Positions 1 to 25,091 of a stretch of DNA of 25,091 bases are shown in pieces. Both the position numbers and the translations under genes were made by a program. Source of the stretch: Candidatus Hodarchaeota archaeon. Its GTDB lineage: Archaea > Asgardarchaeota > Heimdallarchaeia > Hodarchaeales > Hodarchaeaceae. Every line of letters starts with the position of its first letter. Within the stretch, counting starts at the first letter, position 1. The notes beneath the pieces were generated by a model. That model ran no database searches. It worked only from the letters and a program-made list of their open reading frames with translations, and was not told the origin of the DNA. The stretch covers positions 1 to 25,091 of the forward strand of contig JAHQWW010000052.1 of the NCBI GenBank assembly GCA_029856365.1, given 5' to 3'.

Positions 1-836
1 GATTGATTTTAGGTCTTTTTGATTTTATAAGTTCATTACTAGTCAGTAGCGATGTTCCAATCTGGTTACCTGGTTTTAATGATATTGGTCTCACCCTTGC
101 AAACTTAATTTTTACTGCAATTACCTGTTTGTGTGCTTACTACTTATTCCCTGAAGATCGTTTTCAGGGACCCATTCTAGCATTTCTGATGATGATTCCC
201 TTTGTCTGGAGTAGTGCTCCCTTAATGATACTATATGCTATTATAGGGTTTTATTTTCACCAATCTTCAATGAAATATAAGGATTATTTTGTCATTCTCT
301 TTTTTACATTAAGCGCCCTAAGTAAATACTTTGCTGGGGTCTTTTTAGTTGCGATATGGATTACTTATTTGTATGAAAAAGAATGGAAAAAGGTTATTGC
401 TGCACCAGGAATTCCGTTTTTTAGTCTTCTTGTCGTTTCTCTACCATTTAACATTATGTGGGTTCTTGAATCAACAGTTCTATTCTATAATTCAGCAAGA
501 CGTCATATTGAAGATGGTTCCCTAGGTGGGACAATTGTTGCTGAATTTGCAAAGATTTTTAACTTAATAGAGATAATTGGAATATTAACGTTAATTGGTC
601 TCATTTTAATCTTCATATTGGGAATTTTTATCAGGAAAAATACTGAATTACGGCTTGTTGTCATGTCATTACTATCATTACTCGTAATTAACAGTTTTGC
701 CCTTCCATTTCTTGCTATAGCTATATTTGGAGTGATATTATTTGACTATGTTATAATAACAAGCTCACAAAGGGAGAAATATACAATTAACAAGAAGCAC
801 TCTATTGAATCTATCCCTGAATTAGATCCTGTTTAA
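1..836 (+). CDS. Polytopic membrane protein, probably 5'-truncated by the window edge; possibly GT-C-fold glycosyltransferase-like
   Basis: The ORF frame starts at position 3, at the window edge. It has about 7-8 hydrophobic helices and an 'LSKYFAGVFL' lysine-after-helix pattern reminiscent of GT-C enzymes. It converges on a methyltransferase gene. The family call is weak. Confidence 0.55.
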   Translation, partial: LILGLFDFISSLLVSSDVPIWLPGFNDIGLTLANLIFTAITCLCAYYLFPEDRFQGPILAFLMMIPFVWSSAPLMILYAIIGFYFHQSSMKYKDYFVILFFTLSALSKYFAGVFLVAIWITYLYEKEWKKVIAAPGIPFFSLLVVSLPFNIMWVLESTVLFYNSARRHIEDGSLGGTIVAEFAKIFNLIEIIGILTLIGLILIFILGIFIRKNTELRLVVMSLLSLLVINSFALPFLAIAIFGVILFDYVIITSSQREKYTINKKHSIESIPELDPV

Positions 837-7071: not shown

Positions 7072-7617
7072 ATGAAATCTAATACTGAAGATCCTAATAC
7101 GCCTTCGAATCTTTCAGAAGCTAATTCTCCATGGAATATTGTACTTGCTGTCGTGTTAGCACCCTTGAGCTGCTACATTATTGTGTTTTGCTTTACTAGT
7201 TTAGCAGAATTCATTCACAATGTAGATATCAACCTAATAGATGGATTTCCCTTTATAGATCTTTATGTTAAATCGCAAACTCCTATTATTTGGCCGCCAG
7301 CACTATACCTTGGAGGAATAATAGGAGGAATAATAGGAGGATTAGTAGTATATTGGGAAATAAAAATAAAAATGAGTAAGAATAACCCCTTGAGACCAGT
7401 TAAGCTCTTCTCTACCGACATTTTTTATCTAGGGTTGTTAATAATATTAACTTATATATTAGAATTACTTTCGGAGAGTATAATTCTCCAAGGTCTCCTA
7501 TTCATCCTTGAGATTGCTTTCTTCACTTTTATCGGCCGATATATTAGCAGACTGACTGTGAGTACCTCAGAAACGCCAGAAGATCCTAGCATTCTCGATA
7601 AAGATTCAGAGCTCTAG
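7072..7617 (+). CDS. Hypothetical membrane protein (about 4 TM) with a glycine-zipper helix
   Basis: Starts 13 nt after the lysS stop with a GGAG SD. It has four hydrophobic segments, including 'GGIIGGIIGGLV'. Confidence 0.75.
   Translation: MKSNTEDPNTPSNLSEANSPWNIVLAVVLAPLSCYIIVFCFTSLAEFIHNVDINLIDGFPFIDLYVKSQTPIIWPPALYLGGIIGGIIGGLVVYWEIKIKMSKNNPLRPVKLFSTDIFYLGLLIILTYILELLSESIILQGLLFILEIAFFTFIGRYISRLTVSTSETPEDPSILDKDSEL
7312..7341 (+). repeat. 12-bp tandem repeat (GGAGGAATAATA x2.5) encoding GGII-GGII-GG
   Basis: Exact copies at 7312-7323 and 7324-7335, plus a partial copy at 7336-7341. Confidence 0.8.
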
Positions 7618-7822
7618 AATACTACAAGAGTACCAGATATTTCAATATTACAACCAAACATTTTTTTAGAAGTGAGTTGTAATACATAGGATCAAAGGTA
7701 GTATACTTCTAGCTTCGAATTCCATTTAAGACAAAGTTGGCATTCAAAATAAATCCTCGGTATGGATCAAATTGCAATTTAGAACCTTTGGTTGGATAGC
7801 TCGGCAAAATCCACACATCCGT

Positions 7823-8176
7823 ATGACAAAAGATAAGATGGAAGACAATAAAAGATTCACTTTTCCTGAGCTGTCAGATAAAAAGATTCAAGTAGCAGTT
7901 ACGGATCGAAAGTCTTGGTTTAAAAAAGGTGAATTATGGCCAACAATAATCCTTGTTGAAAAGGGATGGGATAAAACTGGCACTATAAAGAAAGAGGATG
8001 CTTATATTCGAATATTTCGACATGAAGATGGCGCTATTCTTGATATATTGGTTGGTGAGAGTCTCGATGATGGAACCCTTCTCGCAGTCGACTATAATGT
8101 GCCCTTATTTAGTGTGACTTGCTCACGAAAAGGAACTCGAGGTACAGTGCAACGCATTCACTTAGATATCATTTGA
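7823..8176 (+). CDS. Hypothetical small soluble, beta-rich protein
   Basis: Sole long ORF in this gap, with protein-like composition. The start is uncertain (TTG 7772, ATG 7823 or ATG 7838). No family recognised. Confidence 0.65.
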   Translation: MTKDKMEDNKRFTFPELSDKKIQVAVTDRKSWFKKGELWPTIILVEKGWDKTGTIKKEDAYIRIFRHEDGAILDILVGESLDDGTLLAVDYNVPLFSVTCSRKGTRGTVQRIHLDII

Positions 8177-8256: not shown

Positions 8257-8508
8257 TCACTCTTCTGAAGGAGTATCTTTATGGAGAAGAGTAGTGAACT
8301 TGGTAATGGTAGACATATTTCGTACTCTTCCCTCAGCATCAATATAGAGTAATCGAGCATGTGGTTGTTCATCATCGATTCCATGTAAATCAAGAAATAG
8401 ATCCAAACCCGTCACATCAGGTTGAAGACGGTTCGCTGGAATACCGAGCGCTAAAGTCTTTTTACAGATAGAACAGGGTTCAGTTCGAAGTCTGATAAGG
8501 CTAGACAA
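8257..8508 (-). CDS. Small putative Zn-binding protein (CxxC...H...H), resembling a domain common in Asgard archaea
   Basis: 'CSIC', then 'DLHG', then 'PHARLLYIDAEGRVR'. The TTG start is preceded by GAGG, 40 nt downstream of the 996-aa gene on the same strand. Confidence 0.75.
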   Translation of the reverse strand: MSSLIRLRTEPCSICKKTLALGIPANRLQPDVTGLDLFLDLHGIDDEQPHARLLYIDAEGRVRNMSTITKFTTLLHKDTPSEE

Positions 8509-8548
8509 CTTTAAAACCTCAATCTATAGTTTCAGCAACAAATTCAAG

Positions 8549-19100: not shown

Positions 19101-22100
19101 AGCATCGTTTTTATTTGCGGCATATACATCAAAAATTGTCATTCTACCAATGGTCATTGTTCCATTACTGAAGTAAATCGAACCTGTGGATCCTTGACCA
19201 TCTATATGCTCAAGAGAGGTGCGGTTAATTTCAACCCATGTGGTTCCAATGAATTGCCAAAGTGTAAGATTAATATCAAGCATACTCCCACTAGCAGGTT
19301 TCCTTGACTTAGAAAATAGGGTATTATACGTTAAAGTATAGTTGTTGGCAATATTTAACACAGTATTGTTTAAGTCATCCTCATCATCGTCAGCATCGAC
19401 TGTCGAAGCTTCCATCTTGTCCCATTCTAGATGGAAAAACCATTGTAGGTATTTGTACTGATTTTCTTCATGGCCATCAACATATGCAACGAATGGGGCC
19501 AAGCTTAAAGGTTGATTTGAACAGATAGTAATAGTAATATTTTCCTCAACGGTCCTATTTCGTTCTCCCTGTGGATCCTCCCATTTGATAGTTTGTGGTG
19601 ACTCAATTGTTACCGAGGGGTTCTCTTGTGCAAAAATCCTATAGTTAATTGTAATATTTTTCCCAACAGAAACACGGAATGTATACCCGGTAGTTGCATT
19701 TTCACCGCCGTACTCAAAGGTAAATTTCCCATATGGGGTGAGAATCCACTCTAACCCTAATAATAATACGAAGTCTTTACTTTCCAAGTTCACATTGTAA
19801 TCATCACTGGAACTCATCACAAAATGACCGTATTGATCTTTAATCAGAAGATTAAGCATTATATTATTACCTGTTGTGGTACCCAGATGAGTGGCATCCT
19901 GTGCCTGTAAAACAAATTGAACAACATATTTTCCAGGATCTTTGACTTGATCTGTATAATTCCACCATCCAATCGTTTCATAAATTGTGACGTTTTTTCC
20001 ACTCTCAGGTTGTATGTTTTCCAAATAAACCTTGATATAATTACTTATGTTCAGATTTCTGACATAAGCAAAACCAGTACCATTATTATCGTAAACTGTC
20101 ATTGTAATATTGAATGTTGTTTGTTCATCAGGATCGAAGAAAGTTTTTGCCCCAGGATCGGTCCAGATAGAATTAATCTCCATAAATAGATCATGACCAG
20201 TAATACTTGTTTTAGCCCACTCAACTAGGCCAGAAGTTGTGTTTATTCGAAAACTAACTATCTGGTTTCCTAACCACCCATTGTCTGTGTTGTTGGCAAA
20301 AAGATCGAAGCCAAAGAAATAACTCCCATTATTATAATTAGTAAAACTAATGAGATCGATCTGATCAGTGAGATCTGAACCGCTTATGAGAAGCATCTGT
20401 AATTTTGATCTGGTATTATCAAGCCAATGAGTTCCATTCTCTTCAGTGACATCGAAACTTACATTGAAGTAAAAATCACCATCGATCTCAAATAATTGCA
20501 GATCAGGGATCTCAGCGGTTATCTCGATATCATGGTAAGTGACCACCCCACCACTGCTAGAATTAGCCTCAACAACATAATAATAAGAACCTAAACCATA
20601 TCGCCACGTAAAATCAATATCCTTCAGACCTGTTGGAAGATCACTTGGAAGCTGGAAAGTAATATTATAATCACCATTACCCAAGGGAATATAACCCAAA
20701 TAGTCGGCACCAAAGCCATCAACTGTCAAATAAATGTTATCAATATTAAGAGATCCTGTATATGGACTACCATCATCCTCAAAATGGAGCGTTACATCCA
20801 TCAGTGATAAATCAGGATTATTAGTTTCAAGTTTGTCTAAATTATCACTAACATAATATATTTCTAAATCATGATAAGTGACATGATTAGGTTTAGTAAA
20901 ACTGGTATCTACTGTAATACTAGCTGGAACATCATCAATCATCCAGTCTACTTGAATAGAATAAACCTGGCCAATCTGGGGTGATTGGGTACTCCATCTA
21001 TCAGGTAGAACAACAGTCAATGTGAAATCAGTTCCATCCCAACTATCATTTGAAATTATCAGATTAATACCATCAATAACGACTGCAAACTGCAACTTGT
21101 TAACTACTCTATCAATTACATATGTAGCATTGGTAACTAAATCAGTATCATATTCAAATCCGAAAGTAATCTCCCACGTTCCAGGGTCATCAATTTCCAC
21201 ATGTGGGGGAATAGTCGTTGTCAAGTTTTCTATCTTAAAGGTATGGAAGGTGATGGTAGCGTTATAACTGACGGAATTGTGAACATTATCAAACACGGTA
21301 ATGTTAACAACAATATCATCACCAGGAGTAACAAGAGAATCAAATGAGGAGATATTAGTAAGACTCCAATCGCTAAACCCACTAAAGATCCCATTGAGAA
21401 AATGACTTCCACTGACATAGTCTAGAACAGTAATATTTGCCATACCTGAACCAGTCCCATCATCAGCTTGACCTGTAAGAGTAACAACTGGACCATTCTG
21501 GTGTAGAATAGTAGTGTCATCACGAATTGGAGGGGCTGTATTATCAAACCGAACCATAATACTTTTTTGAGCAGAATTGTTGACATTATCGAATGCGGTC
21601 AAAGTAATAGTGATAGTCCCATCATTATCATCGAAAACATCAGTAACATTACCATCACCACTTGCACCGAAGTCTAGTGAGTAAGATTCTCCACCAGTAC
21701 TCTCCCACGCTAAAGTAACTATATAAATCCCGCTTAGAGAATCACTGGGGAGAGATAAAATTTCAAATCCATCAACTAATTGCTCTTGATCATACCAGTT
21801 ACCAAATGAGTCTAATTCAGTACCAATAGGATCATAATCAGGATCAGAAACGTCACTGAATATAATACCAGGAGATCTAAGATCTTTTATAACTTGTAAC
21901 AGAATCTGATGGGTATTACCCACATTGTCATACGTTATCAGATTAACAGTTTGGTTTGTGTTATCCGATGCAGTAAGACTATATGTCCGTACTGAAGTGA
22001 TATTCTCTGCATCCTCATCACCAATAGCAGGGAAAGTTGTGGTATAAACGCCTGCATTAGATCCTCCCCCATCAGAGGTACTAATAGTAATGGTAACAGA

Positions 22101-25091
22101 TTGAGGAGTAGCTCCCATTAGATCAGAGTACCATAATTTATTAGGAGAGAGAAGTTTGTGAATGAAAGGAGAATTACTATCATCAATGGAAGTGATACTT
22201 CCAGAAGGAGCTTGAGTATCACGACGTATTTCGAGGGTGGTCGTATTGATGTTACCACAGTTATCAAAACTTGTAAAGTTCATATTCCCAAAATCACTAC
22301 TTGTACTGGAAATGCTGTAGGTTTGGGTAAGAACTGTAGCTTTAAAATCGGTTCCACGATTAAAGAAGGCAGGAAATTCTACAAAACGAAACCCTGAATC
22401 AGAACTCTGACCCCCATCATATACTGAGACTGTAATGTTGAAATTTACTGGTGCTGGCATTTGATTACCATACCAGAGGATTTGGGTTCCATCACCTTTA
22501 TAATATGTAAAATCAGAATTTTCGGTCACGGCAGTGGCTTCTAACCAAACATTTGGCTTTTTATTGTCAAGATAACAAGTTAATGTGGTTGGATTGGAAT
22601 TACCACAGTTATCATAAATAGTGATTACAATTTGATCATCACTAGCAAAACCGTTATTAAAAACAGTATAATTTATCTCATAACTGGTTGTATAACTTAT
22701 ATCAAAGGGAGTAGTTCCAAAATCAAAGCTCCCCGTAACGTTTCGAAGTCCAGAGATAGAGTCATCTGTAATAATCTGAATAAAGAATTGTTCACTCATT
22801 CCAAGGGTATTGTTAGAATAGAAGAAAGTTGACTCGTCATAATAAAGATAATCAGAGTCTTCAGTAATTTGGGAAATAATAGGAACTGAAGGAGGTGTGA
22901 TATCAAGATAACAGGTTAGAGTATTATTGTTACTATTACCTACCTTATCAAAAATAATTATCATAATTTGATCATCACTAGCTAGACCACCAGGAGTGAC
23001 AGTATAATTTAACTTGTAGCTATCTGAATAACTGAAGTCAGAAGCAATATCGCCAAAATCAAAACTCCCTGTGGAGTTTTTCAGTCCAGAACTTAAATCA
23101 CCTGTAGTTATATTAATTGTAAATAATTCGCTCATACTTGATTTGTTATTTGAATAATAAAGAACTAAGCCATTATAGTAAAGATAGTCCGAATATTCGG
23201 TAACGTAAATCACAACAGGCTTCGTTGGGGGGGCATTATCAATAATCGTGGTTAAACCAACACTTGTGGGGTTTCCAACATTGTCCCAGACTATTATATT
23301 GAAGGTTGGAGCAGTTTCATCACGATCTATAGTAAATAATAATTCAAAGTAATTTTCAGGTGTATACTCATCATCATAAGGAATTGAACCAAATTCAGAC
23401 GAATTAGCTTTTTGAAGACCACTTATACCATCCTCCCCAGTGACACGAACACTGAAAGACTCAGACATATCCTGGTCGTTTGAATAATATAATATCTTTG
23501 TTAAATCATTATAATAAAGGAATTGTGCAATAGCTTGAACATTAACATTGGTAATTTGGACGTTTGCGGGACCAATATTGTCCTCAACACACGAAAGATC
23601 AATGCTTTCACTATTGCCAACATTATCGAAAACAGTTAAAGTCAAGACTGCTCCTGAGGCTGTTTCACCTTCTCCAATGTAATAGGTTAAATCGAAGGTT
23701 CCTGAAGAATTATCAATGCTTAGATGAGATTCACCAAAATCGAAACTTCCTGTCACATTTTGTATCCCGCTTAACGTTTCCAACGCGGTAAGATTTACAG
23801 TAAAAAGATCATTCATGTCAGTATTATCATTAGAATAAAATAAGGTTGAACCATTATAATAGATGAATTCAGATTCGTCTGTTATTGGAAGTATAGTAAG
23901 AGAAGTTGGTTTGTACGTATCCTCAATTGTTGTGAGTACGATAGATTTATTGTTTCCTACACGATCATAAACCACACAGCTAATGCTAGAAGCAAATTCA
24001 CCGTTGTCAACATAATAAGTGATCAAGAAGCCATTACTATACGAGATATCAGAACGATTTGCTAATGTTTCACTAAATGCAACTGATCCTGTTAAGTTCC
24101 CAAGACCTGCTTGGTTATCCTGAGCTGTAACGTTAATAGTGAATGATCCAGAATGGGCGGGAATATTTGAATAATAGAAGATTTCTGTATCATTATTATA
24201 ATAGAGAAATTCACTTATTTCAATAACAGTTTCAATTTCAAGATTGATTGGCGCAGTATTATCCTTCAAAACCCTAACTAAATCCACTGGTGTGCAATTT
24301 CGTCCTGAAGCATCAACAGCATATCCGCGAATCCAAATATCGTTGGTTGTGGTATTAGTTACACTAAAGGAACCAGTGTCTGTTACATTTTGTGTTGGTA
24401 TTCCATCAAAATCTTGGAATATTACGTATCCATTAGTCATCCCACTTCCGCTATCTAAAGCATTGACAGTGACGTTAAAATCAGCATGATTCAAACCAAT
24501 ATCGTCACTATAATATAGAATATCACCAAAAACATGGGTTCTCCACTTCCAAGACACCTCAGTGATTGTTTGAAGTTCAATCGTCGGATTTTCCTCATCA
24601 ACAAAAAGGTTCACCTCAATCCAACTACTATTCAAGCCTGCGAAATTTTGAGCTCGAATGTAAATACTACGATTTCCTGTAACACCAATATCATAATTAA
24701 TCAAAGCATTTGTTACAGTATGATAATCTGGAATAGGATCATTTGCTAGCCACCCAATATCACCTTGAGTAAACTTCTGTTCAACAGGGTTATCATCACT
24801 ATAAATGTAAATAAATTCTATCACTGTACTTGAATTGAATGTAAAAGTAAGGTTGAAATTAGCGCCATTCCAATCATAGAGAGAAGGTTTTAGAATATTT
24901 GGTTCATTTCCTTTCACGTTAATAGTTACAATTAAAGGCCCTTGAATATCATATCGGAAATTAAAACCAGAAATCCCAGGAACAAATAGATGAGTAAGAG
25001 TATTCCCTGCTTCATCTGATATCCTAAGATCGATGGAATTTTCACCGTTAAATAATGAATTTGTCCAATCTAGTATGTTCCAATCAGTTGT
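16176..25091 (-). CDS. Giant single-pass membrane protein A (>2971 aa, 5' end beyond the window): tandem Ig-like repeats, TM, longin/uDENN-like cytoplasmic domain
   Basis: The frame is open for 58 more codons past the ORF-track start at 24917, up to the window edge (TTDWNILDW...ISDEAGN...YDIQGP...). TM at ~16752-16806. Tail motifs 'IFDQVKGPVPIIWHP' and 'YAFALANPEARGGQENISLCFVI'. Confidence 0.9.
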   Translation of the reverse strand, partial: TTDWNILDWTNSLFNGENSIDLRISDEAGNTLTHLFVPGISGFNFRYDIQGPLIVTINVKGNEPNILKPSLYDWNGANFNLTFTFNSSTVIEFIYIYSDDNPVEQKFTQGDIGWLANDPIPDYHTVTNALINYDIGVTGNRSIYIRAQNFAGLNSSWIEVNLFVDEENPTIELQTITEVSWKWRTHVFGDILYYSDDIGLNHADFNVTVNALDSGSGMTNGYVIFQDFDGIPTQNVTDTGSFSVTNTTTNDIWIRGYAVDASGRNCTPVDLVRVLKDNTAPINLEIETVIEISEFLYYNNDTEIFYYSNIPAHSGSFTINVTAQDNQAGLGNLTGSVAFSETLANRSDISYSNGFLITYYVDNGEFASSISCVVYDRVGNNKSIVLTTIEDTYKPTSLTILPITDESEFIYYNGSTLFYSNDNTDMNDLFTVNLTALETLSGIQNVTGSFDFGESHLSIDNSSGTFDLTYYIGEGETASGAVLTLTVFDNVGNSESIDLSCVEDNIGPANVQITNVNVQAIAQFLYYNDLTKILYYSNDQDMSESFSVRVTGEDGISGLQKANSSEFGSIPYDDEYTPENYFELLFTIDRDETAPTFNIIVWDNVGNPTSVGLTTIIDNAPPTKPVVIYVTEYSDYLYYNGLVLYYSNNKSSMSELFTINITTGDLSSGLKNSTGSFDFGDIASDFSYSDSYKLNYTVTPGGLASDDQIMIIIFDKVGNSNNNTLTCYLDITPPSVPIISQITEDSDYLYYDESTFFYSNNTLGMSEQFFIQIITDDSISGLRNVTGSFDFGTTPFDISYTTSYEINYTVFNNGFASDDQIVITIYDNCGNSNPTTLTCYLDNKKPNVWLEATAVTENSDFTYYKGDGTQILWYGNQMPAPVNFNITVSVYDGGQSSDSGFRFVEFPAFFNRGTDFKATVLTQTYSISSTSSDFGNMNFTSFDNCGNINTTTLEIRRDTQAPSGSITSIDDSNSPFIHKLLSPNKLWYSDLMGATPQSVTITISTSDGGGSNAGVYTTTFPAIGDEDAENITSVRTYSLTASDNTNQTVNLITYDNVGNTHQILLQVIKDLRSPGIIFSDVSDPDYDPIGTELDSFGNWYDQEQLVDGFEILSLPSDSLSGIYIVTLAWESTGGESYSLDFGASGDGNVTDVFDDNDGTITITLTAFDNVNNSAQKSIMVRFDNTAPPIRDDTTILHQNGPVVTLTGQADDGTGSGMANITVLDYVSGSHFLNGIFSGFSDWSLTNISSFDSLVTPGDDIVVNITVFDNVHNSVSYNATITFHTFKIENLTTTIPPHVEIDDPGTWEITFGFEYDTDLVTNATYVIDRVVNKLQFAVVIDGINLIISNDSWDGTDFTLTVVLPDRWSTQSPQIGQVYSIQVDWMIDDVPASITVDTSFTKPNHVTYHDLEIYYVSDNLDKLETNNPDLSLMDVTLHFEDDGSPYTGSLNIDNIYLTVDGFGADYLGYIPLGNGDYNITFQLPSDLPTGLKDIDFTWRYGLGSYYYVVEANSSSGGVVTYHDIEITAEIPDLQLFEIDGDFYFNVSFDVTEENGTHWLDNTRSKLQMLLISGSDLTDQIDLISFTNYNNGSYFFGFDLFANNTDNGWLGNQIVSFRINTTSGLVEWAKTSITGHDLFMEINSIWTDPGAKTFFDPDEQTTFNITMTVYDNNGTGFAYVRNLNISNYIKVYLENIQPESGKNVTIYETIGWWNYTDQVKDPGKYVVQFVLQAQDATHLGTTTGNNIMLNLLIKDQYGHFVMSSSDDYNVNLESKDFVLLLGLEWILTPYGKFTFEYGGENATTGYTFRVSVGKNITINYRIFAQENPSVTIESPQTIKWEDPQGERNRTVEENITITICSNQPLSLAPFVAYVDGHEENQYKYLQWFFHLEWDKMEASTVDADDDEDDLNNTVLNIANNYTLTYNTLFSKSRKPASGSMLDINLTLWQFIGTTWVEINRTSLEHIDGQGSTGSIYFSNGTMTIGRMTIFDVYAANKNDADGTIVLQFQFNDIIKITVVVSSRDESKTSGKTYREYPSEKIISYVNETSDTLFPETIIWTKFKVRMWALDDRLPMLEGATIFVEAHYAHDVSLDLTNRTRVYVLDNTINLNYASNTWIENQVYWSNVLSRGVVENVTFKIVNFDDEIFGISAFEDVLTRASEVKVDIKWDQIVFLVSLAKPWGNNTRFNVNSPAFVQIVAYYANDWTPFNGKITLFHTTTSNVKIGPMNRTTMLWNESVEVLIKFPYKTLSPQTAFFYIEGVIEDIHGLNGTIEGQGYHVISDIGEKWLNLKWDRVIIDFYVSDSSDPLDYLELSPGDSINVTLKAYYESDGRPINISNYEYSLYKNDLQFETKRSLLFFDDHEWREANNTYRVVYSNDSVTNLIGAYSADIEVQPSITICWIDRQPPRLIDQKIIDFGNGTLGFLVITTDDLPEKYFGSGLVSVTSQITILDRLPSTKILEFVRYSIIGSEHFFFGKLNTDPSNSRDHFNYNDNISYIIEITDKNGNLGEYEFSTYLHADSEAPEIDGTITLYYSSEIEGNFNISFRALDNWSGLKNATIRFFNPSTNKWSLLKVMSMEDITLDYKSATFKKNTSFTVGTSILYEITIYDRSGNSRVIKDDIQVIDEAGPRLLLSEFSYNKFGEFNIRITVGDNGSTVESAVLFYQIDGEKPLHINLTELVEVGGGSSIHRTNYLYTKTFSKRFIIQPDLVSVKTVTFSLVLTDSEGNNRTISNEELSDMLQAQSKTGWDGEISPGPVDLLTETPVLIIIIAVILVFASLAIQRFRTISGFDKKKIMQDLEKISESEVWERNDDISLGLIASIFDQVKGPVPIIWHPEKLGTSEMMIHSLADRSFSTLGFVSNPEEDKDATFRFQVSGEKCAVFGYAFALANPEARGGQENISLCFVIRPPWGNLENLNKFKSELLEKSRRIHQLMEEKVDIKIVQKEMQETRNFFTRSMITFRKKYTKEFIE
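21546..24950 (-). repeat. Ten consecutive 112-117 aa Ig-like (Big-type) protein repeats in protein A
   Basis: D-x-x-x-P boundaries at 24950, 24599, 24263, 23921, 23582, 23240, 22904, 22568, 22220, 21884 and 21545 (spacing 336-351 nt). Recurring motifs are 'LYY..LYYSN', 'D..SG' and 'D(N/K)VGN'. Confidence 0.9.

Follow-up and report, generated by a model that had tools for sequence, protein, structure and literature searches.

Folliculin-class longin domains as predicted membrane-anchored tails of giant surface proteins in a conserved operon of a Hodarchaeales archaeon

GTPase-activating protein (GAP) complexes built on longin domains, namely FLCN-FNIP, GATOR1 and C9orf72-SMCR8, underlie nutrient sensing and the control of lysosomes and vesicles in eukaryotes. 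PMC12290439 describes GAP longins as carrying a GP motif where the b1-b2 loop ends or b2 starts, adjacent to the arginine finger; the motif is reported in FLCN, NPRL2, SMCR8 and C9orf72, and not in FNIP2, NPRL3 or non-GAP longins. Asgard archaea are known to possess related longins together with many Rag- and Arf-like GTPases, and matching these regulators to their GTPases or to a site in the cell is described as not yet possible (PMC10933270; PMC12290439). Here, we analyse a 25,091-nt stretch of DNA from a Candidatus Hodarchaeota archaeon (contig JAHQWW010000052.1; hereafter the window), which makes up the whole of contig C52; the genome has a size of 4.24 Mb and is 84% complete. Three consecutive genes of the window, A, B and C, encode large surface proteins, each of which ends in a tail that is predicted to be a cytoplasmic longin domain of the folliculin (FLCN) class.

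The three genes are located on the minus strand, A at 16176-25091 (at least 2971 residues visible), B at 11543-16153 (1536 residues) and C at 8549-11539 (996 residues). Because the window is the whole contig, gene A is open at its 5′ end, where the contig end cuts it; in orthologues from better assemblies, its open frame comprises 8821-10431 residues. A and B are separated by 22 nt, B and C by 3 nt, and C and a fourth, co-oriented small open reading frame (ORF) by 40 nt, with Shine-Dalgarno-like motifs (AGGAGGA, GAGGA and GAGGT) 7-9 nt upstream of the start codons. The ORF coordinates and upstream motifs thus agree with an earlier note on this DNA, made from the letters alone, which had described three genes in the same direction with gaps of 22 and 3 nt and Shine-Dalgarno motifs. 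A and B have ~930 C-terminal residues in common, with 26% identity. The database entries of the A, B and C orthologues all read 'hypothetical protein', and the tail domain is recorded in none of them.

The tails comprise 191 residues in A (16179-16751), 195 residues in B (11546-12130) and 237 residues in C (8552-9262), all on the minus strand. They align along their full length (A/B 43% identity, A/C 23%), confirming the homologous tails of 190-240 residues that the earlier note had placed at exactly these coordinates. The structure of A's tail only was modelled, using AlphaFold2 (AF2) with a 37-sequence alignment, and the model has a predicted local distance difference test score (pLDDT) of 94.2 and a predicted template-modelling score (pTM) of 0.89. 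Its elements follow the order H-H-b-b-a-b-b-b-a-a, in which two juxtamembrane helices precede the longin order with its five-stranded sheet (E34-43, E47-54, H56-76, E85-94, E97-109, E117-126, H133-155 and H160-184). The best VIA-align match is the Lokiarchaeota longin 8yqg (Z 13.5, 142 residues aligned), followed by FLCN (6nzd_H, Z 12.1, root-mean-square deviation (rmsd) 2.6 Å over 134 residues), C9orf72-SMCR8 (7o2w_A, Z 11.3), Lst4 (Z 10.5), 6ulg_N of the FLCN-FNIP2 complex (Z 10.4), DENND1A (Z 10.0), 6lt0_B (Z 10.0), NPRL2 (8fw5_B, Z 9.9) and Npr2 (8adl_S, Z 9.2), while generic longins (VAMP7, TRAPP, AP sigma) score Z 7-8 and GAF/PAS domains ~6. The best Foldseek match is 8dhb_J, from the active FLCN GAP complex. 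The longin fold proposed in the earlier note is therefore borne out by AF2, Foldseek and VIA-align on the A tail, the latter two placing FLCN-class longins at the top, and the tails are accordingly read as longin domains of the folliculin/NPRL2/SMCR8 sub-type. When HMMER profiles of the tail alignments were searched against PDB sequences, only chance helical matches came up. The additional label 'uDENN' has to be dropped: no Pfam DENN lobe matches downstream of the longin, A and B stop directly after helix a3, ~5 residues past the longin, and the domain is therefore a stand-alone longin, for which 'uDENN' is a misnomer.

The conserved blocks of the tail family are FFDQxxGPxP, LSDRSFS and PEARGGxEN, plus a late arginine. 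The GP motif and the arginine loop are FDQVKGPVP (16602-16628) and NPEARGGQEN (16395-16424) in A, and lie at 11981-12007 and 11774-11803 (NPEARGGKEN) in B. Across 133 family domains, G47 is conserved in 131, P48 in 115 and R114 in 117. In the A tail model, strand 2 begins with G47 and P48, and the b4-b5 loop contains R114; the strand-turn-strand GP motif and later ARG loop noticed previously are thus found where eukaryotic GAP longins have them. A search of 1.84 billion proteins with a profile of the three tails, clustered at the 50% identity level, yielded a family of 169 clusters. The domain is C-terminal in the 150 representatives listed, where a median of 5 residues follow it, and a transmembrane (TM) helix directly precedes it in 119 of the 133 representatives having enough upstream sequence; the longest carrier among the representatives listed has 5809 residues.

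Several sequence comparisons point from this family to folliculin. Pfam Folliculin (PF11704) matches the A and B tails below its cut-off, at E ~0.01, over the same profile region in both, and matches 7 of 37 family members, with a best E of 3.6e-4. Among the neighbours of the tail in the protein-language Atlas are fungal LST7 and an archaeal cluster, 19% of whose members carry PF06218 (NPR2). Furthermore, the same genome encodes a soluble 443-residue protein, L011 (G000:C9:52647-53978), that scores 29.9 bits with Pfam Folliculin, above the cut-off, and contains both the GP and the ARG. In an hhalign comparison with the tail profile (probability 79%, E 1.6e-5), GP falls on GP and ARG on ARG, so that R114 of the tails is aligned to the ARG of a Pfam-Folliculin protein of their own genome. 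A second protein, L013 (G000:C21:4091-5218, 375 residues), has a longin with the GP motif but without the arginine, and a weak DENN match behind it; L011 and L013 are possibly an FLCN/FNIP-like pair of soluble proteins. A third, L010 (G000:C96:28413-29486, 357 residues), has an N-terminus that aligns with the part of the tail profile around the GP motif, and is encoded 2-9 kb from four Rag/Gtr-type GTPase genes (C96:31796-38627).

The signature sites set A and B apart from C. All A and B orthologues retain the GP (FFDQxxGPxP), DRSFS and NPEARGG, whereas all 8 C orthologues are without the GP and without the conserved arginine. In C orthologues, YGQxExxS occupies the place of the GP (YGQREGVSS, 9116-9142, in the window), DKANN is present, and a conserved 14-residue insert, TLPQQWLSxLTLDQVP, replaces the arginine loop (insert at 8867-8932). 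The arginine found in the C of this window is G, T, D or A in other C orthologues. In a tree of the tails, A, B and C form three orthologue clades, with SH-like approximate likelihood ratio test (SH-aLRT) supports of 99, 99 and 100, and A and B are neighbours. The stem branch of the C clade measures 2.2 substitutions per site, while its tips measure 0.02-0.17. Judged from these alignments, the C tail appears to be a degenerate, non-catalytic version that is itself conserved. A tail that is conserved but has no catalytic signatures, like that of C, would be expected if a catalytic subunit worked with a non-catalytic partner (compare FLCN-FNIP, NPRL2-NPRL3 and SMCR8-C9orf72), and suggests longin pairing of A or B with C. 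B and C also remain neighbours in L008, where the genomic context differs. The last 45 residues of the C tail also contain an acidic peptide, DIMGDFETEFL (8615-8647). The form D(I/F)MxDFExxFL is found in C proteins only (orthologues L001-L005, L007 and L009), within a stretch of 36-58% D+E. L001 and L004 each carry it twice, and it resembles a short linear motif for binding.

The three proteins are predicted to be type I membrane proteins, with a sequon-rich exterior, one TM helix and a cytoplasmic tail. By hydropathy, B and C start with hydrophobic signal-like segments (16070-16153 and 11456-11539, respectively), and the N-terminus of A is outside the contig. Each protein contains a single further strong hydrophobic 19-mer, 190-240 residues before the C-terminus and followed by K/R-rich sequence, at 16752-16808 in A (TPVLIIIIAVILVFASLAI, then QRFR...KKK), 12131-12187 in B and 9263-9319 in C (minus strand). 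The ectodomains hold 31, 44 and 81 N-x-S/T sequons, compared with 9.5, 16.5 and 42 expected from composition, a 2-3x excess; the tails hold 1, compared with ~0.8 expected, and thus no excess. The K/R residues after the TM helix (the positive-inside rule) and the sequon distribution therefore place the tails on the cytoplasmic side, in keeping with the single TM helix and cytoplasmic tail per protein of the earlier note, and the confinement of the sequon excess to the ectodomains fits N-glycosylated exteriors. In a jackhmmer self-scan, ten tandem copies of a ~110-residue repeat were found in A at 21249-24539 (minus strand; residues 185-1281 of the visible part) and two further copies beside the membrane at 16899-17510 (minus strand), giving at least 12 repeats. 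The earlier description of the ectodomain repeats as 'Ig-like' is only partly supported. The repeats are tandem, and Pfam Big_13 matches B with 28.8 bits against a cut-off of 27, although the match spans only 26 residues; the Big_3_2, DUF7743 and PKD matches are below threshold, and the repeat region of A has no Pfam family match. Because Pfam recognises little of the ectodomains, 'Ig-like' is a reasonable but unproven label.

The distribution of the tail was examined in 300 genomes of the phylum, with matches counted at E <= 1e-10. The tail is found in 19 of 20 genomes of the window's own family (a single genus; 1-10 matches each), in one of two genomes of the other family of the same order, in 19 of 29 and 6 of 11 genomes of two further families of the same class, and in one genome of another class; the two largest families, sampled with 76 and 68 genomes, gave no match at this threshold. 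Within the sampled genomes, the tail family thus occurs almost only in Heimdallarchaeia. The genome is that of an Asgard archaeon of the Hodarchaeales, which agrees with the Asgard source supposed in the earlier note. The genome itself contains 10-11 tail copies. Nearly all of them end large ORFs, and these giant genes often stand in tandem arrays. On contigs C158, C155, C147 and C135 (G000), a tail-bearing giant gene is followed within 0.3-0.8 kb by another giant gene, which has a signal-like start and is cut by the contig end; on C158, a 99-residue ORF intervenes. Tandem arrays of giant tail genes probably break the assembly.

At other loci, the tail family is linked to Rag-type GTPases. In 5 of 5 genomes from two other Heimdallarchaeia families, a Rag/Gtr-type match follows the tail-bearing gene by 160-210 nt on the same strand, and in 4 of the 5 a second Rag gene is present 2-3 kb further on the opposite strand. 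Among same-genus paralogues, some have a Rag-type gene at a distance of 96 nt (G101:C1, G279:C4), and others a divergent Rag pair 1-2 kb away. The own genome has ~8 strong Rag/Gtr-type and ~57 Arf/Ras-type matches, none of them on contig C52. The divergent Rag-type pair, with open frames of ~740 and ~310 residues, recurs in the genus (G000:C12:7507-9122, G101:C4:50080-51423, G255:C1:2894146-2895736, G210:C28:59573-61038), in several genomes 1-2 kb from a giant tail gene; since the pair of the own genome is 7.5 kb from the start of contig C12, any giant neighbour there could have fallen into a gap of the assembly. Because sister clades of the tail family are encoded beside Rag genes, Rag-type GTPases are the best candidate clients of the tails, by homology and not by local context.

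FLCN (in FLCN-FNIP2, a GAP for RagC/D, and yeast Lst7-Lst4; PDB 6nzd, 6ulg, 8dhb and 4zy8) shares with the A and B tails the longin fold, the GP at the start of strand 2 and the A-R-G arginine in the b4-b5 loop, the reported site of the FLCN-class finger, in addition to the weak, repeated Pfam Folliculin matches. The likeness to FLCN-FNIP extends to the candidate pairing of catalytic (A, B) with degenerate (C) tails and to the Rag-type GTPases beside members of the tail family. However, FLCN has a DENN domain after its longin, which the tails do not, and is a soluble complex recruited to lysosomes, whereas the tails are covalently anchored in the membrane at the C-terminus of a giant extracellular protein. 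NPRL2-NPRL3 (GATOR1) and SMCR8-C9orf72 (CSW) likewise share the GP and arginine signature with the A and B tails, and account for the structural matches 8fw5_B, 8adl_S, 7o2w_A and 6lt0_B. The C-terminal domain specific to NPRL2 is absent from the tails, no DEPDC5 or WDR41 analogue was identified here, and both pairs are soluble, unlike TM-anchored tails on giant ectodomains. The Asgard FLCN/SMCR8-type GP longins (PMC12290439, Traffic 2025) and NPRL2-like longin fusions have the phylum, the motif pair and the inferred ancestry in common with the tails. Those published are soluble or fused to two-component domains (PMC12290439; Liu et al. 2020 preprint / Nature 2021), and the own genome also has soluble GP longins of the Asgard type, L011 and L013. 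The Lokiarchaeota Roadblock-Longin protein (8yqg), an Asgard longin that is a dimer in the crystal, shows 13-16% sequence identity; its longin is fused to a roadblock domain, while the tails instead follow a TM helix and an ectodomain.

We propose that giant N-glycosylated repeat ectodomains would stand outside the cell and hold a stand-alone FLCN/NPRL2/SMCR8-class longin at the inner face of the membrane. The A and B tails would be arginine-finger GTPase-activating domains for a Rag-family small GTPase (an Arf-family GTPase being less likely), working as longin-longin dimers with the C tail and so repeating the pairing of FLCN-FNIP, NPRL2-NPRL3 and SMCR8-C9orf72. Tethering would confine GTPase switching to the sites where the surface proteins sit or cluster, e.g. 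contacts with a surface or a partner cell. The architecture, the fold class, the motifs, the degeneracy of C, the conservation of the operon and the linkage of the family to Rag genes elsewhere are observed; the GAP activity, its substrate, the heterodimers and a possible influence of the ectodomain on the tail are inferences, as is outside-in receptor signalling by A, B and C. Of the mechanisms considered, that of A and B as membrane-anchored arginine-finger GAP tails, with C as a dead partner, acting on Rag-type GTPases, is the most likely, but it is tentative, and we judge it to fall somewhat short of probable. Several points weigh against it. The Pfam Folliculin scores of the A and B tails, 15.9 and 16.3 bits, are below the gathering score of 23.3. 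The closeness of the GP and the arginine in space is read from their secondary-structure positions and from PMC12290439, the tail of C is assigned by alignment while the structure model covers the A tail alone, and GAP activity is itself a prediction for Asgard GP/Arg longins. No GTPase gene is present in the window or beside the A-B-C operon in G210 and G101, and the nearest Rag match in G210 is ~28 kb beyond gene A. Finally, the Rag linkage at other loci represents inherited synteny among related genomes and not many independent events.

A tether would account for the same linkage equally well. Most longin and roadblock dimers serve as platforms or guanine nucleotide exchange factors (GEFs) (PMC10933270), and the tails could be membrane tethers or platforms that recruit Rag/Arf-like GTPases, in the manner of a Ragulator-like anchor or a GEF-type longin platform, instead of GAPs; the covalent TM helix would then stand in for lipidated LAMTOR1, the Rag/Arf-like GTPases lacking lipid anchors. 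The combination of GP and arginine argues against this role, being reported as specific to GAP longins (PMC12290439) and hardly varying across A, B and most of the family, and we regard a pure tether as unlikely, if worth keeping in view. Alternatively, A, B and C could have a chiefly structural or adhesive role at the cell surface, as sheath, S-layer-associated or adhesin proteins without a GTPase partner, and their longin tails would only oligomerise, anchor or sort them, e.g. via the cytoskeleton or the secretion/glycosylation machinery. The giant, repeat-built, sequon-rich ectodomains, the acidic linear motif of C, of a kind typical of adaptor binding, and the lack of a GTPase neighbour at the A-B-C operon would all suit such a role. 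Nevertheless, it leaves aside the strict conservation of the catalytic-type motifs in A and B orthologues and the encoding of sister clades beside Rag-type GTPases, and on this evidence we consider it distinctly unlikely. A PAS/GAF-like small-molecule sensor, suggested by Foldseek matches to LOV/PAS and LuxR-type ligand-binding domains (E 2e-3 to 2e-2) and by VIA-align matches to GAF/LasR (Z ~6), was rejected on the Foldseek and VIA-align scores and is highly improbable, since these matches have TM-scores of 0.2-0.35 with rmsd of 11-17 Å, or Z ~6, where FLCN-class longins reach Z 10-13.5, the strands are in longin order, and Pfam, Atlas and hhalign point to Folliculin/NPR2.

The GAP reading can be extended to the operon as a unit. 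It is conceivable, although we rather doubt it, that A, B and C assemble into heteromeric surface complexes whose tail pairs, catalytic A or B with dead C, are a tethered forerunner of the FLCN-FNIP, GATOR1 and CSW GAPs, and that clustering of the ectodomains or binding of a ligand switches Rag-type GTPases locally.

The order A-B-C-small ORF-two ORFs-lysyl-tRNA synthetase (LysRS) recurs in metagenome-assembled genomes (MAGs) labelled Hodarchaeota/Hodarchaeales, Heimdallarchaeota and 'Promethearchaeota'. The neighbourhood differs in L008 (CP070695), where the 3-nt gap between the B and C orthologues recurs but A is missing upstream, as are LysRS and the small ORF downstream. The small ORF, P0004 (8257-8508, minus strand), encodes 83 residues with C12, C15, H42 and H50; it has 59-90% identity among homologues, and the two cysteines and two histidines are invariant in 25 of them. 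P0004 has no Pfam family match, its Atlas neighbours are unnamed Asgard clusters, and its AF2 model (pLDDT 74) has a best structural Z of 3.4 and thus no recognisable fold. The earlier note had listed a small CxxC/H/H gene after the three genes. The gene is there and its C/C/H/H residues are invariant, but its membership of the system cannot be shown: P0004 is next to C solely inside the block that is syntenic through to LysRS, is absent beside B-C in L008, and in family f3 its domain forms the N-terminus of ~305-residue proteins that are not beside tail genes. The small C2H2 gene is therefore excluded from the system, and a place for it in the A-B-C system is unproven. Such ~305-residue proteins, with the C2H2 domain N-terminal (profile positions 11-69) and without a Pfam family, occur in another Heimdallarchaeia family (L016, G126:C4:808-1722, with similar ORFs in G132, G195 and G026). 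The two ORFs between the small gene and LysRS, at 7772-8176 (plus strand) and 7072-7617 (plus strand), have no Pfam family and keep their order in seven related MAGs; the 134-residue ORF is 56-95% identical, and the 181-residue ORF, which has weak membrane-protein matches, is 28-71% identical. The first ORF of the window (3-836, plus strand) weakly matches archaeal EMC6 (PF19094, E 0.0056, below the cut-off). A sigma-70/terminator scan of the window was uninformative in an archaeal host.

The earlier note had also supposed the architecture to be uncharacterised. No paper describing it was found, and to this extent the supposition stands; the domain type itself has been published for Asgard archaea (PMC12290439; Liu et al. 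2020 preprint), and therefore only the architecture is new. The form with a TM helix and a giant ectodomain is absent from the text of PMC12290439, whose supplementary set of 15 Asgard longins lies outside the comparison, and from the Liu et al. 2020 preprint; it is likewise absent from PMC10933270, a 2026 review and a 2026 structural-clustering preprint. An operon triad of catalytic and degenerate tails is mentioned neither in the text of PMC12290439 nor in the Liu et al. 2020 preprint. What appears to be new, as read from sequence, is a membrane-tethered, receptor-like longin domain of the GAP class in a catalytic/degenerate operon triad.

A regulator-type domain would thus be held beneath giant surface proteins, on the inner side of the membrane, in a conserved catalytic/catalytic/degenerate triad that yields concrete constructs and partner candidates for biochemistry. 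If the proposed reading is true, it would amount to an archaeal outside-in pathway from receptor to small GTPase in the lineage closest to eukaryotes, and it suggests that the pairing of catalytic with pseudo-catalytic longins, and the control of Rag at a membrane, may be older than eukaryotes.
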